Positions 741-39,370 of a stretch of 64,000 bases of DNA are shown here, piece by piece. Positions within the stretch are counted from its first letter, which is position 1, and each line of letters starts with the position of its first letter. Position numbers and translations under genes: made by a program. The notes beneath the pieces were generated by a model. It searched no databases, was not told the DNA's origin, and saw nothing but the letters and a program-made list of their open reading frames with translations. Source of the stretch: Alphaproteobacteria bacterium (GTDB lineage: Bacteria; Pseudomonadota; Alphaproteobacteria; SHVV01); contig OZ253470.1 of the NCBI GenBank assembly GCA_965261735.1, positions 416,001 to 480,000 of the forward strand, read 5' to 3'.

Positions 741-875
741 TCTATTCCGCCGCCTTCATCTCTCGGGCTTGTGCCGGTGCGGGAACCCTCGTCGACGAAC
801 GAACCCGAGCGGTCTGTCCGTCGTCAGATGATTTGCGACAGGGTTGTGCCGACATTGTCATGTATGGACGCCCCC

Positions 876-1112
876 GGTGTTGCAAGGGGAAAACTGATTT
901 GAATCGGCGGTAGAGCTTGCAGTCATGTATCCGGCCTTTTCGCTGCGGTACGCTGACCGCTGGCCCTGATGGAATCCGAAAGATCGACGCCCAGTCAGAC
1001 TAACGAGCTTGATGCTCGGACAATGCCTCGGGTTTGGCCGATCTCGGGTGGAACCCTGTTTCGCCATCAAATCGTCGTCACCCTCGCAATTTGATCCCGG
1101 TTTGCCAGCTGG
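876..1112 (-). ncRNA. Predicted bridge/seek RNA of the IS1111 element
   Basis: Contains segments matching the target flanks (994-1004, 1019-1025) and the donor junction (923-930, 967-972); RNA boundaries unknown. Confidence 0.7.
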
Positions 1113-2132
1113 CTATGCCGGCGTCGGTCGGTAGATACGCTCGTACCTGAGCAGTGCCCAGGCGACACGGGCTGCCTTATTGGCCATGGCGACCAGCACC
1201 ACGTTTGTCGGCCGCCGCGCCAGGAGCCGGTCGGTCCAGCCAGGCCCCGTGCCCGGCTTGGCGCGGCGCCAGCGCAGCACGGTTCGCGCACCATGCACGA
1301 GCAAGCGCCTGATATAGCCATCCCCGCGCTTCGATATCCGTCCCAGTCTATCCTTGCCGCCACTCGAGTGCTGCCGGGGCACCAGACCGAGCCAGGCCGA
1401 AAGCTGTCGGCCCGAGCGGAACTGTGCGCCATCGCCGATCGTCGCGACCAGCGCCGTCGCGGTGATGACACCGACGCCGGGGATCGTCGCAAGACGGCGG
1501 CTCGCCTCGTTGGAGCGGTGCCATGCCAAAAGCGTCACTTCCAGCTGCTTGATCCGGGCCTGAGCAGAACGGAGCTGCTCAACCAGAGAGCCAAGCGCCT
1601 CGCGTGCCAGAGGCGGCAGTCGCACATCGCCGGGATCTTCGATAATGGCAACCAGTTCCTCCACCTTCGACGCCCCCTGAGCGACGATCAGTCCGAACTC
1701 CGCACAGTGGCCGCGCAGCGCATTGATCACCATCGTGCGTTGACGGACCAACAGCTCTCGGGCCCGGTGCAGCATCAGAACCGACTGCTGCTCGGCGCTT
1801 TTCGCCGGTGCAAAGCGCATCGTCGGACGCGTCACTGCCTCACAGATCGTTTCCGCATCCGCTGCGTCGTTCTTATTCGTTTTGACGAAGGGACGAACGT
1901 ATTGAGGCGGAATCAGCTGAACTTTGTGCCCGTGTGCTTGCAGTTCCCGAGCCCAATAGTGCGCAGAGGCACAGGCTTCCATACCGACAAGACAGGATGG
2001 CAATCCGGCGAAGAACGCCAGCACCTTCCCGCGGCGCAGCTTCCGCCGTAGTACCGGTCGTCCCTCACCATCAGCACCGTGAACCTGGAACACCGTCTTT
2101 GCCAGATCGAACCCAATTGTCGTAATATCCAT
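1113..2132 (-). CDS. IS110/IS1111 recombinase (DEDD RuvC-like + Tnp domain)
   Basis: GFDLAK, MEAC, KTNKNDAADA, IPGVG, GLVPRQHSSGG, SKRGD motifs. Confidence 0.95.
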   Translation of the reverse strand: MDITTIGFDLAKTVFQVHGADGEGRPVLRRKLRRGKVLAFFAGLPSCLVGMEACASAHYWARELQAHGHKVQLIPPQYVRPFVKTNKNDAADAETICEAVTRPTMRFAPAKSAEQQSVLMLHRARELLVRQRTMVINALRGHCAEFGLIVAQGASKVEELVAIIEDPGDVRLPPLAREALGSLVEQLRSAQARIKQLEVTLLAWHRSNEASRRLATIPGVGVITATALVATIGDGAQFRSGRQLSAWLGLVPRQHSSGGKDRLGRISKRGDGYIRRLLVHGARTVLRWRRAKPGTGPGWTDRLLARRPTNVVLVAMANKAARVAWALLRYERIYRPTPA

Positions 2133-2340
2133 CGTGGACGCTCCCTCTGTCTGGGTTGTTCAACACACTCCAGTATGGCTCATCGTGAAGCCGTAGGGGG
2201 CGTCCATACCATCAGACCAACTGGGTCGGACCTGCAAGACCTACAACCAAGCGGCCTCAGGCTCCCGCCAACTCATGAACCACATTGGCCCGGCGCCGGC
2301 GCCGGGCCAATCATGTTTCGGCTGCCGCCGTGGACCAGTA

Positions 2341-5419: not shown

Positions 5420-5992
5420 GCCCTTTCTTCGAGGCGTCGTCGCGGCCAACCATGCGCTTTGTAGCTGTGAAGACGGAGGAACAGCAGGCTCGGGGCAGGG
5501 AGTATGAGAAGCTGGCTCGGCAATGTGCGGCGGAGAATGCCGATCATGTCCGGTACCTGGCGCGCTTGATCGAGTTGGAGCTGATAGACCGCGAAGCCCG
5601 CATGGTCGAGCGACGCATCAAGGCGGCGAGGTTCCCTTCGATCAAGAGCCTGGAGAGTTTCGGCTTCGATGCGATCCCCACACTCAACAAGAAACTGGTT
5701 GTGGATCTGGCCCGCTCGGATTTTGTCGATCCACACGAGAACGTCATCGCGCTTGGCCCCAGCGGTGTCGGCAAATCCCATGTCGCCATCGCCCTGGGCG
5801 TGGCGGCATGCCAGCGAGGCATAAGAACCCGCTTCGCCACCGCCGCCGTGATTGTGCATGAACTCATCGAGGCCCACGACGAGAAGCGGCTCTTGCGCCT
5901 GCAAAGGCAACTTGCCAGCCACGAGTTGCTGATCATCGACGAACTCGGCTTCGTTCCTCTCTCGAAGACTGGCGCCGAGCTATTGTTCGAAC
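5420..5992 (+). pseudogene. istB: IS110 transposase scrap fused to an IS21 IstB ATPase fragment
   Basis: RPTMRFVAVKTEEQQARG joined to REYEKLARQCAAEN...GPSGVGKS...LLIIDELGFVP; cut at 5993 by an IS1595 end. Confidence 0.8.
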
Positions 5993-23084: not shown

Positions 23085-23326
23085 GGCCGCGGTCGGCCGT
23101 AAGCTGGCGCAGCCGGAACGCACGGTCGTCGCGACCGTGGACGACGCGGGGTTGGAGATGCGCGCAAGCGTGCGATCAAGCGGACGACCTTCTCCACGGC
23201 CTAACGGAACGTTTACCCCATCGGTTACCCTTCACCCCTTCACGGCGACAGACATGCGCTGTGATTGTACTCCGCGTGATTCCCAATAGATTCCCAACAT
23301 GCTATACTTGCCATGTTGGTGGAATC

Positions 23327-23362
23327 AAAAACCCCTGAAAACATCAGTGTCTTCAGGGGTTT
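23327..23362 (-). terminator. Intrinsic terminator-like hairpin downstream of the tRNA fragment
   Basis: AAACCCCTGAA/TTCAGGGGTTT stem with a T run on the minus strand. Confidence 0.55.
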
Positions 23363-23366
23363 GATT

Positions 23367-23412
23367 TGGTTGCGGGGTTGGATTTGAACCAACGACCTTC
23401 AGGCTATGAGCC
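23367..23412 (-). pseudogene. 3' half of initiator tRNA-Met (att-like remnant)
   Basis: GGCTCATAGCCTGAAGGTCGTTGGTTCAAATCCAACCCCGCAACCA; no D-arm or 5' acceptor strand. Confidence 0.8.
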
Positions 23413-23421
23413 GGATTGTCA

Positions 23422-23467
23422 TGTCAACGGCGGCGGGAATATGTACCGGCGCGGCGGCGCAAAAATG
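23422..23467 (+). mobile_element. IS21-family terminal IR remnant (continues at 24846 to about 24940)
   Basis: TGTCA start, tandem GGCGGCG-N-A(T/A)ATGTACC repeats once the IS1111 is removed. Confidence 0.65.
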
Positions 23468-24845
23468 ATGGAGTGGACGCCTCCTCCCGACGGCATCTGC
23501 ATGTGCCAAGGTGGTGTTGTAGTTCGACCCCCTGAAGGAGGAGGCATCCGTGGAACAGGTTACCATCGTCGGGATTGATTTGGCGAAGCGCAGCTTTCAG
23601 CTTCATGGTGCTGGGGCGGACGGCTCTGTCGCGTTCCGCAGGAAGCTGAGCCGGGAGAGATTGCTTGAGTTTCTCGCTTCTCAGCCGCGCTGCGTGGTCG
23701 CGATGGAGGCTTGCGCGGGCGCTCATCAATGGGGCCGCGAGATCGGACAGCTCGGCCACGATGTGAGGTTGCTCCCGCCGATCTACGTCAAGCCGTTCGT
23801 GAAGCGGCATAAGAACGACATGGCGGACGCAGAGGCGATCTGCGAGGCGGCGCAGCGCCCGACGATGCGCTTCGTGGCGGTGAAGACGGAAGAACAGCAG
23901 GCCAGGGGAATGTTGTTCCACACGCGCGACCTTCTGGTGCGCCAGCGCACGCAGACGATCAACGCGTTGCGGGGCCACCTGGCGGAGTTCGGCGTCGTCG
24001 CGCCGCAGGGACCGGCTCATGTCGATCGGCTGGCATCGGCCCTCCAGGATCCAGGTTCAGGGCTGCCGGGATCGGTCCGTGAGCTGGGCGCCCTTCTGTT
24101 CGATCGGATCGAGGACCTCGATGCGAAGATCGCTGGATTGAGGAGGGAGCTCCGCGCCCGCGCGTGTCAGGACGAAGAGGCGGCACGGGTCATGACGATC
24201 CCCGGCATTGGGCCGATCACCGCAACGGCAGTCCAGGCCTTCGCACCGCCGATGGAGAGCTTCCGGCGCGGCCGCGACTTCGCGGCCTGGCTCGGGCTCG
24301 TGCCGCGACAGTACACGACCGGCGGCAAGCCAAGGCTTGGCAGGATATCGAAGATGGGCCAACGCGATCTGAGGCGGCTGTTGATCACGGGCGCCATGGC
24401 TGTGGTCAGCTGGGCGGCTCGTCGTGGCGAAACGAACGCCCCCTGGCTGGCCAGGATGCTCGCCCGCAAGCCGAGAATGCTGGTCGCGGTGGCGCTGGCC
24501 AACCGGATGGCACGCATCGTCTGGGCGGTGACGACGAAGAAGGAGAGCTACCGGGCTCCCGCCGCCGCCTGAGAGGGCGGCGAAAGGCGGAGAGCCGTCG
24601 GGGATGTGGGCAGGTCGGAGGACAGGTAAGGGCAAACGGTCGATCGAGACGGGATCGGGAAAACCAGTCGTGGTACACGGAGCTTTCAAGCCCGCAAAAA
24701 TGATCTTGGACCCGGCCCGCGCATCTCCATACAGGCCCGCGGCGTCAAACCAGCCGCATCATGAGGCCGGACAGATGACTAAACCTGACCGCATGTGCCG
24801 AACCGTCCGAAGAAAGGCTTGCATCAACGGAGGCGTCCACAGATG
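23466..24845 (+). mobile_element. IS110 family, IS1111 group element (transposase 23550-24572)
   Basis: Subterminal IRs GTGGACGCCTCC 23473-23484 / GGAGGCGTCCAC 24829-24840, TG cores; GIDLAK, KNDMADA, GLVPRQYTTGG. Confidence 0.93.
24573..24828 (+). ncRNA. Predicted bridge/seek RNA
   Basis: Target guides CGTGGTACA 24669-24677 and CGCAAAAATG 24693-24702; donor guides near 24725-24733 and 24771-24778. Confidence 0.78.
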
Positions 24846-24944
24846 TACCACGGGCTCGGTGGTAGCTTGTCCGCGTAGTCCATGGGAGGGACCCGCGCGC
24901 GGGGCGACGCGCCCTCCGCGCGATCGAAGGCAGGCTGCGATTGT

Positions 24945-25565
24945 CTCGCGCGGTGAACAGCGCACGCGATGTCGTCGCGCAGAAAACCAAAGGCGTCCCA
25001 CTTTTTAACGCGTCGGCGGCGCTCAAGCATGCTCTCGATGACGAAACTTTCGCCAGTCTGCCAGGCAAACTGCCGGACTTGGAAGCCAGATTGAATGCCG
25101 CCCTCGGCTGGCATGTCAAACAGCTCGCCGATGAAAAGCTGAGACTAAAAGCACTGGCGTCACGTTTCTTTCTACCTGCTGAGGACCTCACCGTATCGGC
25201 GACCTGTCCGCTCTGCGCCCAACACCTGACAACGGAGCATCAGCTTGCCCTCGCGGCTGAGCTCGGCGCCCTGAAGGTCGACGCGGACGCTGCGGAACGC
25301 GCTATTGATGACGCGTGCTCGGACATCCACAAAACGCTTCTCGTCCTTTTGCCACAACCAATTCAGGACCAATTCGCAAAGCTTGCATCAATGAACCCCG
25401 CCGCAGATTACGGGATCGCCGTTCGAGACCGGTTCGTGAGGCCAACGCCTTTCTCCGATGTGCTTGTCGGCATTGCCCGGTCGGTCGAGAGCCAAATCGC
25501 ATCGCAGACCAAATCGCTACCCGGCTTCCAGCATCCGCCATTCGAGCCGCGGTCTAAGCCGGAGC
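24945..25565 (+). pseudogene. Internal fragment of a coiled-coil ATPase-like protein with a CPLC zinc-hook-like motif
   Basis: Helical sequence around ATCPLCAQ; no start or Walker motifs. Confidence 0.45.
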
Positions 25566-26135
25566 CCGGCCGAACCGCTGGAGGCCGTGATCCGGCGTCG
25601 CGGATCGAGCCGCCGGTTTACCGGCAAAAGCATCTCCTTCACCGCGCTCTCGACGATCCTGGACCGGACCGACCGCGCCATTGCCGCGGACTTTCTGGCC
25701 CCCTCCGGAGCGTCCCTCTGCGACCTCTATCTGATCGTCAACGCCGTCGACGGGCTCCCCGCAGGAACCTACGCATACAGGCCCGCGCACGGCGGGCTGG
25801 AGCCGCTCCGCGAGGGAACGTTTCGGGAGGAAGCGACGGCCTTGGCGCTGGGGCAGGACCTGGCGGGCGAGGCCAGCGTCAACCTCTACTTCCTCGCCAA
25901 CCTGCAACGCGTGACGGCGCGCTTCGGCGATCGCGGCTATCGCGCGGCCGAGCTCGAAGGGGGGATACGGGGCGGCAGGGTCTATCTCGCCGCCTATGCG
26001 CTGGGACTGGAGGCCACGGGGCTGACCTTCCTCGATGACGACGTGACCGCATTCTTCTCGCCCCACGCGGCCGACAAATCGGTCATGTTCCTCGCGGCCG
26101 TGGGCCGGCCGGGCCGGCCTTACGCCGTTTCCTGA
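25566..26135 (+). pseudogene. SagB/nitroreductase family, C-terminal half
   Basis: VIRRRGSSRRF, GDRGYRAAELEGG, GLTFLDDDV. Confidence 0.75.
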
Positions 26136-38572: not shown

Positions 38573-39370
38573 TCACGCGGCGGCTCTTTTCCTGCGTCGA
38601 TCCGAGCCGGACTGCAGCAGGTTCTGATGCTCCTTCATCCGGTAGCTGTTGCCCCGGATGTTGACGATGTGGCAGTGGTGCACAAGGCGGTCGATGAGAG
38701 CCGCCGCCATGACCTCGTCGCCGAGCACGCCACCCCAGTCCTCGAAACCCTTGTTCGACGTCAGCACAGTCGACGCCCTCTCGTGCCGGGCGTTGATGAG
38801 CTGGAAGAAGAGCACGGCGCCGTCCTGGTTGACCGGCAGGTAGCCGATCTCGTCGACCACCAGCAGGGCCGGATGGGTGAGCACGCGCAGCCGCCGGGTC
38901 AGATTGCCGGCGGCCTTGGCCTCGGTGAGGGACTCGATCAGCGCCGCGAGCGTGCCGTAGTAGACGCGCCGGCCGGCCTCGGCCGCCGCGATCGCGAGGC
39001 TGATCGCCAAGTGCGTTTTCCCGACGCCTGGTGGGCCGAGCAGGATCACGTTCTCGCCGCGGTCCAGGAAGCCGAGCTCGTGCAAGCTCTCGATCTGCTC
39101 GCGCTTGATGCTGGGCTGGAAGGCGAAGTCGAACTGATCGAGCGTCTTCACAGCCGGCAGCCGCGAAGAGCGCATGGCGGTCTGGAGACGGCGGTTGTTG
39201 CGCAGCACGATCTGGGCGTTCAGCAACTGCTCGATGGCCTCGGCCGCCGAGATCGTGCCGCCGTCGGCGTCCGAGAGGATGCCGTCGACGGCCTCCAGCG
39301 CGCCCGGCATCTTGAGGTCCGCCAGCATTGCCCGCAGCCGGTCGCGCCGGGCCGGCGCCGGAGCGTTCAT
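38573..39370 (-). CDS. istB: IS21 helper ATPase IstB
   Basis: GPPGVGKT, LVVDEIGY, TSNK, IDRLVHH, GNSYR. Confidence 0.93.
   Translation of the reverse strand: MNAPAPARRDRLRAMLADLKMPGALEAVDGILSDADGGTISAAEAIEQLLNAQIVLRNNRRLQTAMRSSRLPAVKTLDQFDFAFQPSIKREQIESLHELGFLDRGENVILLGPPGVGKTHLAISLAIAAAEAGRRVYYGTLAALIESLTEAKAAGNLTRRLRVLTHPALLVVDEIGYLPVNQDGAVLFFQLINARHERASTVLTSNKGFEDWGGVLGDEVMAAALIDRLVHHCHIVNIRGNSYRMKEHQNLLQSGSDRRRKRAAA

Follow-up and report, generated by a model that had tools for sequence, protein, structure and literature searches.

An IS1111-group element within an IS21-family end

The DNA analysed is a stretch of 64,000 nucleotides (nt) from an alphaproteobacterial genome (assembly GCA_965261735.1, contig OZ253470.1, positions 416,001 to 480,000, forward strand), hereafter called the window, to which all coordinates refer unless the genome is named. 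At 23466-24843 on the (+) strand it contains an intact insertion sequence (IS) of 1378 bp which belongs to the IS1111 group of the IS110 family. It lies within the right terminal inverted repeat of an IS21-family element, where it interrupts the inner of two direct repeats (R2); two words in its non-coding region match the two flanks of the insertion. The initial annotation had proposed an IS1111 element programmed to hit an IS21 terminal repeat, with both guides matching perfectly; on reading 23200-25100, all of its coordinates and words were found as given, including the flank matches of 10/10 and 9/9, the donor words ACAGATGA and CTCCATACA, and the letters of the putative circle junction TTGCAT-N17-GATGAT. 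The features are collected in Table 1. The boundaries of the element were set by the convention of 7-nt and 3-nt extensions, and the shared ATG lets them slide by up to 3 nt.

Table 1 Features of the IS1111-group element and of the interrupted IS21 end (window coordinates)
Feature	Position	Strand	Description
Outer 44 nt of IS21-family right terminal inverted repeat	23422-23465	+	Terminus TGTCAACGG at 23422; R1 23429-23447; left half of R2 23453-23465
Left end of element	23466-23484	+	7-nt extension TGATGGA (starts with core TG), then 12-bp subterminal inverted repeat GTGGACGCCTCC (23473-23484)
Transposase gene	23550-24572	+	340 aa, GTG start, ribosome-binding site GGAGGAGG upstream; DEDD (RuvC-like)
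Predicted seekRNA/bridge-RNA core	24638-24790	+	Outer stem 24638-42/24786-90; RNA ends are a prediction only
Target arm stems	24652-59/24711-18, 24664-67/24706-09; distal hairpin 24680-83/24690-93	+	Consensus fold
5′ target segment	24669-24677	+	CGTGGTACA, complementary to top strand of right flank and core; hypervariable block 1
3′ target segment	24693-24704	+	CGCAAAAATG + AT, complementary to bottom strand of left flank and core; hypervariable block 2
Donor segment (left end)	24725-24733	+	CTCCATACA, of which CTCCAT is complementary to ATGGAG (23468-23473) in the left end
Donor arm stems	24734-37/24765-68, 24739-43/24753-57	+	Consensus fold
Donor segment (right end)	24771-24778	+	ACAGATGA, equal to right end ACAGA, core TG and next left-end base A
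Right end of element	24819-24843	+	-35-like TTGCAT (24819-24824), 12-bp subterminal inverted repeat GGAGGCGTCCAC (24829-24840), 3-nt extension AGA
Inner 79 nt of IS21 right inverted repeat (remnant)	24844-24922	+	Begins with right half of R2 (TGTACC)

The predicted transposase matches PF01548 (53.6 bits) and PF02371 (84.9 bits), and scores 318.5 bits against NF033542, "IS110 family RNA-guided transposase" (cut-off 140), with residues 6-332 covered. IS1111 transposases have 330-350 amino acids and the signature GL-P----S(t)G (Siddiquee et al., PMC11187229; this and the other papers are cited here from excerpts of their text), to which both the length of the protein and its motif GLVPRQYTTG (WLGLVPRQYTTGGK) conform. 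Subterminal inverted repeats of 11-13 bp, terminal extensions of 7 bp (left) and 3 bp (right), and a long non-coding region after the transposase gene are further traits of the group (PMC11187229). The subterminal inverted repeats GTGGACGCCTCC and GGAGGCGTCCAC agree at 12/12 positions, within the 11-13 bp and with the 7/3-bp extensions of IS1111 elements, and 271 nt (24573-24843) are non-coding downstream of the gene, compared with 84 nt (23466-23549) upstream. The same end architecture was seen in most of 74 related loci with detectable ends. Insertion is site- and orientation-specific and without target duplication in 4/4 genomic copies; removal of the 1378 nt restores the empty site, in which only the shared core is ambiguous. 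At the level of sequence, then, the element agrees with the IS1111 group in every test of membership, as had been claimed.

In the empty state the target reads GCGCAAAAA^TGTACCACG (a caret marks the insertion point here and below), which is the R2 repeat in the right terminal inverted repeat that characterises one IS21-family subtype. IS21 ends have terminal inverted repeats of the form TG...CA, each with two direct repeats 23 bp apart (PMC10122671). Here the first repeat, R1, is GGCGGCGGGAATATGTACC; R2 is composed of 23453-23465 and 24844-24849, and the two repeats start 24 bp apart. The identification was made from another of the four genomic copies, A3, whose host (genome 4173193-4177125) is a complete IS21-family element of 2557 bp, the insertion not counted. 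This host encodes IstA (NF033546, 263.3 bits, cut-off 160; rve and Mu-transpos_C_2 domains) and IstB (NF038214, 283.2 bits, cut-off 200), the latter reading towards the insertion, and its left end carries a cognate repeat pair, GGCGGAGGAATAATGCTCCAC and GGCGGCGCAAAATTGTGCCAC. Since it is a full IS21 with IstB, IstA and cognate left-end repeats, the interrupted sequence could be assigned to R2 of the right end. The IS21 end of the initial annotation thus stands in a narrower form, as the inner repeat of specifically the right inverted repeat, towards which IstB reads, and with only a 123-nt remnant of the IS21 in the window. By homology, R2 is expected to be a binding site of IstA. The bases outside both termini of the A3 host, looked at against the approximately 5-bp target duplication of IS21, show no obvious repeat.

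All four copies are preceded by a common stretch of 40-46 nt counted from the TGTCAACGG terminus, and 60-79 nt are common on the other side. Several of these ends have a neighbouring IstB match (PF01695) that reads in their direction. The window itself keeps a solo IS21 remnant of 44 + 79 nt: the inner part is 98.7% identical over 79 nt to the full-length host, the likeness ends at 24922, beyond which contigs of other samples also diverge, and the sequence behind the remnant has no IstA or IstB domains and contains a nitroreductase open reading frame (ORF) at 25458-26135. The A2 host keeps 60 nt inside the insertion, and the A4 host has an internal deletion. A layout with the IS21 body to the right of the element and IstA first was ruled out, ORFs such as 24941-26038 having no IS21 domains and the end being a right-end remnant.

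Two more IstB matches lie elsewhere in the window, at 5500-5991 (+) and 38624-39328 (-). Of these, one is partial, and the other belongs to a different IS21 subtype, seemingly in expansion and not targeted by the element, whose 10 IstB copies score identically.

Putative guide words and predicted fold of the 3′ non-coding region

The 5′ target segment is the reverse complement of TGTACCACG at 24844-24852 (9/9), and CGCAAAAATG at 24693-24702 recurs at 23458-23467 (10/10), an identity extending to 12/12 (23458-23469) through the element bases AT which follow the core. Each target word occurs exactly twice in the 64-kb window, once in the flank and once in the non-coding region, where 0.16 (CGCAAAAATG) and 0.14 (CGTGGTACA) occurrences would be expected by chance. 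In 5′ to 3′ order the top-strand match comes first and the bottom-strand match second, with an overlap at TG; this order, with overlap, is the one reported for IS1111 seekRNAs (PMC11187229).

The 3′ non-coding regions of the window element, three other local families and 32 foreign relatives were aligned (36 rows), giving a strongly conserved scaffold broken by two hypervariable blocks. RNAalifold predicted 30 pairs in six helices from this alignment, 15 of them with compensatory changes. In the consensus structure 97.3% of cells were paired, against 22.7-46.6% when the partners were slid by 1-3 columns, and the observed covariation was reached by none of 500 shuffles. Both target words fall in an internal loop of the predicted fold, which has one hypervariable block on either side (24668-24679 and 24694-24705) and is closed by a small hairpin. 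The donor words lie in junction strands around the second arm, that is, in a multiloop, the position noted for IS1111 donor guides in the excerpted text of Durrant et al. The guide layout claimed earlier is borne out by this fold. Most likely, the 3′ non-coding region encodes a seekRNA or bridge RNA, which would be made from the element and bound by its transposase.

Joining of the element's ends would place TTGCAT, after a spacer of 17 nt, before GATGAT, formed from GA (24842-43) and TGAT (23466-69), and so create a putative circle-junction promoter. TTGCAT or TTGCAA stands at a constant distance from the end in this element and in the related local families described below. A promoter scan of the linear region 23300-25000, which did not include the joined circle junction, returned no sigma-70-like site. 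The arrangement would fit a circular intermediate with a junction promoter.

Taken together, these observations very probably reflect insertion that is guided by a seekRNA/bridge RNA, is specific in site and orientation, and has the TG core of R2 as its target. Two loop segments of the RNA would pair with the two target strands around the core and two further segments with the element's own joined ends. The element would in this way home to every copy of R2, using the end of another transposon as a multi-copy landing pad. Insertion splits R2 and moves its far part 1.4 kb from R1, and would probably disable the IS21 end until the element excises.

Genomic copies, guide variants and relatives

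The genome contains four copies at 97-100% identity, the window copy A1 and A2 to A4 (97% to A1), all at the same position and in the same orientation in the IS21 repeat; the mapping of copies and flanks proposed earlier therefore gave one site in 4/4 cases. Between copies A2, A3 and A4 there are 0/1376 differences within the element, whereas 3-5 of the 100 flanking IS21 bases are different. A1 is separated from the three by 36 differences. Because identical elements lie in IS21 ends that had already diverged, the insertions appear to be independent and recent; the pattern argues for independent homing, with gene conversion as the alternative. One could also suppose that a single IS21 already carrying the element transposed as a composite, with the element as cargo, and that the hosts decayed later. 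The element does lie inside IS21 termini, and the four hosts are of the same subtype and have four different contexts outside the TGTCAACGG terminus. Transposition as a composite would, however, predict similar divergence inside and outside the element, in place of none in 1376 against 3-5 per 100 nt; it leaves aside relatives that occupy different repeats (right-end R1 and R2, left-end inner) of other IS21 subtypes, and empty sites exist, although gene conversion among copies could mimic the divergence pattern. We consider such cargo transposition very unlikely and retain guided homing as the explanation.

A perfect empty 19-nt site is absent from the genome: 12 sites were found within three mismatches, each with 1-3, and all are unoccupied at that position. 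The site at genome 2249776 (AAAATTG) has a single mismatch, adjacent to the core, and is empty, as are four left-end inner repeats with two mismatches. Empty sites were also found in metagenome contigs. Those of two runs join 23464 to 24843, skipping exactly 1378 nt, and so show the exact empty site; in those of two other runs the site is likewise empty but variant, the core being preceded by G or T, and the same runs carry letters of the type of D5, a related local copy, exactly at 24668-24681 and 24700, in the guide blocks.

The genomic region of the single-mismatch site (genome 2242000-2250200) has an empty near-cognate IS21 right end at 2249742-2249860 with only the last 43 model positions of IstB. 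This remnant is followed by an IS256-type (Mutator family) transposase gene, which shows that the IS21 was truncated by another element.

PF02371 has 38 matches in the genome. The element, used as a DNA query, retrieved the four copies (family A), a single copy with 86% identity (D5), the fourteen copies of family B (81%) and family C, to which the window's "first IS1111" belongs. These groups share a common scaffold and ends, and the two target blocks vary in step with the flanks. In family A the 5′ word CGTGGTACA and the 3′ word CGCAAAAATG accompany the flanks ...GCAAAAA^TGTACCACG; in family B the words are CATCCGAACG and GTAACCG, with flanks ...AAC^CGTTCG...; and in family C they are GGCATTGTC and GTTAGTCTGA, with flanks ...GTTAGTC^TGACAATGCC. 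Changes in the right end are likewise followed by the donor word: ACAGATGA is found with ...ACAGA^TG (A and D5) and ACACACGA with ...ACACA^CG (B), and CTCCATACA, which falls in the multiloop of the fold, is kept where the left end is kept. The constant spacing of TTGCAT or TTGCAA from the end applies to A, B, D5 and C. The initial annotation had called the two elements of the window a natural reprogramming pair; they have indeed the same layout with different guides, and at least four guide variants are present in the genome.

The family C element of the window lies at approximately 862-2215 (-), has the ends TGATGGTATGGACGCC...GGCGTCCATACA and the core TG, and its guides match its own flanks; the family accounts for 11/38 PF02371 matches, some of them truncated. 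The 14 copies of family B (L006-L019, outside the window) are in diverse loci and have a short, degenerate target match around AAC^CGTTCG, and a CG core in place of TG with corresponding changes in the donor word.

The dependence of guides on flanks was examined across 80 elements. Exact matches of at least 7 nt to the own flank were present in 62.5% (left) and 22.5% (right), compared with 9.7% and 2.9% of swapped-flank controls (n = 3426), in agreement with the covariation claimed earlier; the window element has the longest flank matches of all 80 (10 and 9). Twelve foreign loci with subterminal repeats of at most 8/12, or nested, had been dropped (L041, L043, L044, L045, L048, L051, L054, L055, L056, L093, L098 and L109), and the local copy L015 was also left out. 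These figures bear on the idea that the transposase protein itself recognises the site and that the matching words are passive footprints, such as captured copies of the target, with no guiding role. In its favour, the matches in many relatives are short (5-8 nt). Against this, the two words occupy, in opposite orientations, loops of a fold that is supported by covariation; they follow the changes of the flanks, while the transposase DNA remains 81-97% alike; and related IS1111 elements have been retargeted experimentally by altering exactly these words (PMC11187229). Footprints without function are thus a highly improbable explanation, and the words are better read as guides.

Eighty foreign loci encoding relatives were kept, three of which had no recognisable ends and three had ends too near a contig end. 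The seven closest foreign relatives (L035-L040 and L042; 83-85% amino-acid identity, all in metagenome-assembled genomes (MAGs) of Alphaproteobacteria) all abut IstA or IstB and sit within the IS21 end repeat ATCGGCGT(C/G)CAA(A/T)AT^TGACCCCC, either R1 or R2 of right ends or the left-end inner repeat; the local D5 is likewise inserted in an IS21 end repeat. In these seven and D5 the left guide CGCAA(A/T)ATTG follows the A/T difference in the targets ...AA(A/T)AT^TG. IstA or IstB was found in the examined flanks of only 12/81 loci, four of which are not end insertions: L043 is nested and was dropped, and in L047, L049 and L070 the IS21 genes do not abut an element in a terminal repeat, so these were not counted. 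L070 is a CG-core relative inside an IS21-family element, with the IstA match on one side of it and the IstB match on the other, outside the terminal repeat. A tree built from 64 transposase rows places the 10 IS21-end rows on one side of a branch (support 98/92), and none of 500 label shuffles was as clustered. Only midpoint rooting was applied, the clustering is inflated by near-copies, and the very long branch of L076, for which a wrong ORF was taken, is to be ignored; L063 and L088 (doubtful ends) and L087 (ORF below 300 aa) were left out.

Proposed guided insertion, its possible effect on IS21 and related systems

Several results weigh against guided insertion as set out above. Pairing is imperfect at two occupied sites, the A4 right target (TGTACCGCG) and the A3 left target each having one mismatch, both distal, so that either perfect pairing is not required or the flanks mutated after insertion. 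The D5 element and the close relatives match the right flank over TGACCC alone (6 nt), and the CTCCAT donor match reaches the core only with a 1-nt bulge. The single-sequence fold of 24629-24803 was no better than that of shuffles (z = -0.84), for which reason the structure relies on covariation. No Rfam family matched the non-coding region, either at gathering scores in the whole window or at E up to 1 in 24560-24860; a bridge-RNA model is either absent from Rfam or does not reach the group of this element. Parts of the element, 24638-24768 among them, are covered by contigs that come from RNA libraries but are uninformative on transcription, strand and ends. The junction promoter agrees with the sigma-70 consensus at 7/12 positions (3/6 + 4/6), below the threshold of the scan itself, and the circle-junction joint was not among the metagenome contigs, which drop rare forms and are hence uninformative either way. 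Three of the four hosts are decayed IS21 pieces, giving no indication of the functional state of the target when it was hit. Lastly, many of the relatives come from MAGs of maybe one campaign, and L036-L038 share one context; because of this, the independent events in the clade are fewer than its rows.

With respect to the consequence for the host, the initial annotation had spoken of parasitism or inactivation of another transposon's transposase-binding site. For IS5376 to integrate, both direct repeats of each end have to be complete for its IstA (PMC10122671), and by analogy with that result the insertion may inactivate the IS21. It may also be that homing is real but neutral, the IS21 repeat serving as a safe, multi-copy, horizontally travelling landing pad, with no meaningful effect on IS21, antagonism or co-evolution; to this view we give serious weight, a little short of even. 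IS110 and IS1111 elements are known to pick repeated non-essential sequences (repetitive extragenic palindromic (REP) sequences, attC sites and Tn21-family inverted repeats are named in the titles of papers), and three of the four hosts are already dead fragments. Neutrality is harder to reconcile with the IS5376 requirement, R2 being split here, and with the occupancy of the only full-length IS21 of the targeted subtype while the untargeted subtype has 10 identical IstB copies, which is a correlation only. A more far-reaching view, possible although we regard it as rather doubtful, is that an IS1111 clade consists of specialised hyperparasites of IS21, whose guides co-evolve with the IstA-binding repeats of different IS21 subtypes and whose insertion, by splitting a repeat required by IstA, reversibly switches the host off. 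The guide-target variants in that case would be AAAAA^TGTACC, AAAAT^TGACCC, AATAT^TGACCC and perhaps GGAATAA^TG (genome 4311631). If it were true, the clade would represent an RNA-guided conflict of transposon against transposon that can shape which IS21 lineages remain active in a genome.

IS4321 and IS5075, IS1111-family elements reportedly described by Partridge and Hall in 2003 in the terminal inverted repeat of Tn21-family transposons, resemble the present element in their subterminal inverted repeats and in their fixed position and orientation within a terminal inverted repeat that belongs to a different transposon. Their host sequence is the 38-bp inverted repeat of the Tn21 family (Tn3-type), whereas here it is a direct repeat in a multi-repeat IS21 end, with other guide words. 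The IS1111-attC group, said to have been defined by Post and Hall in 2009, also consists of IS1111 relatives specialised on a recombination or binding site of another mobile system, but its target is the attC site of integron cassettes and not a transposase-binding repeat of an insertion sequence.

The closest parallels in mechanism are ISEc11, ISKpn4, ISPa11 and ISPst6, for which a seekRNA was shown experimentally (PMC11187229). They share with the present element the non-coding region downstream of the transposase gene, the order and overlap of the matches, the length of 330-350 aa and the GL-P----S/TG signature; they differ in having other targets, IS21 being unmentioned in the excerpts of that paper, and the seekRNA of the present element is a predicted one. 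Natural reprogramming between close relatives has been described for ISEc11 and ISXne4 (PMC11187229). The IS110-group element IS621 (PMC11208160, PMC11208158) likewise combines a DEDD/RuvC-like recombinase with a bispecific RNA that pairs with target and donor at a dinucleotide core. As in its handshake guides, the bases after the core (here AT after TG) match the post-exchange partner, and its promoter, putative here, is rebuilt across the circle junction. In contrast, the RNA of IS621 lies in the left end, its target matches come in the reversed order, the core is CT, the subterminal repeats are very short, and the donor guides occupy a simple internal loop where a multiloop is predicted here (PMC11208160, PMC11208158).

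The mechanism is already known (Siddiquee 2024; Durrant 2024) and no new principle is added here. The use of IS21-end direct repeats as an IS1111 target class is probably unreported: no mention of it was found in a full-text literature search or in the excerpts of PMC11187229, PMC11208160 and PMC11208158, while ISfinder, the supplementary target tables and Partridge and Hall 2003 may list it. The locus and its relatives provide, in one genome, a natural data set for the guide rules of IS1111-type elements, with four scaffolds having common ends and different guides, and with occupied sites carrying one distal mismatch beside unoccupied ones with core-adjacent mismatches. They also offer a testable case of one transposon disabling another, which bears on the balance of insertion-sequence load in IS-rich genomes.

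Two further loci in the genome combine IS21 and IS1111-type sequences. At 4279550-4279960 a truncated IS1111-like fragment, which breaks off at query position 975, is directly abutted by an IS21 left end (TGTTAACGGCGGAGG...) with its start at 4279946; here the IS21 seems to have inserted into an IS1111-type element, a reciprocal nesting. At 4311577-4311700 a tandem duplication of the IS21 left-end outer repeat is followed by an IS1111-type left end (ATGGAGTGGACGCC...) at ...GGAATAA^TG. This element soon breaks off and could be a further guide variant against another IS21 repeat.

Directly before the IS21 terminus in the window, the pentamer TGTCA (23417-23421) repeats the five bases with which the terminus begins, a duplication absent from the other three hosts. 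The sequence at 23366-23415 (-), which abuts the IS21 terminus, resembles the 3′ half of a tRNA (T-arm, acceptor end and possibly a CAT anticodon), although no tRNA adjoining the element was called by ARAGORN. About 11 copies of it with 92-97% identity are scattered in the genome, and they could be remnants of integration sites or a tRNA-derived repeat.

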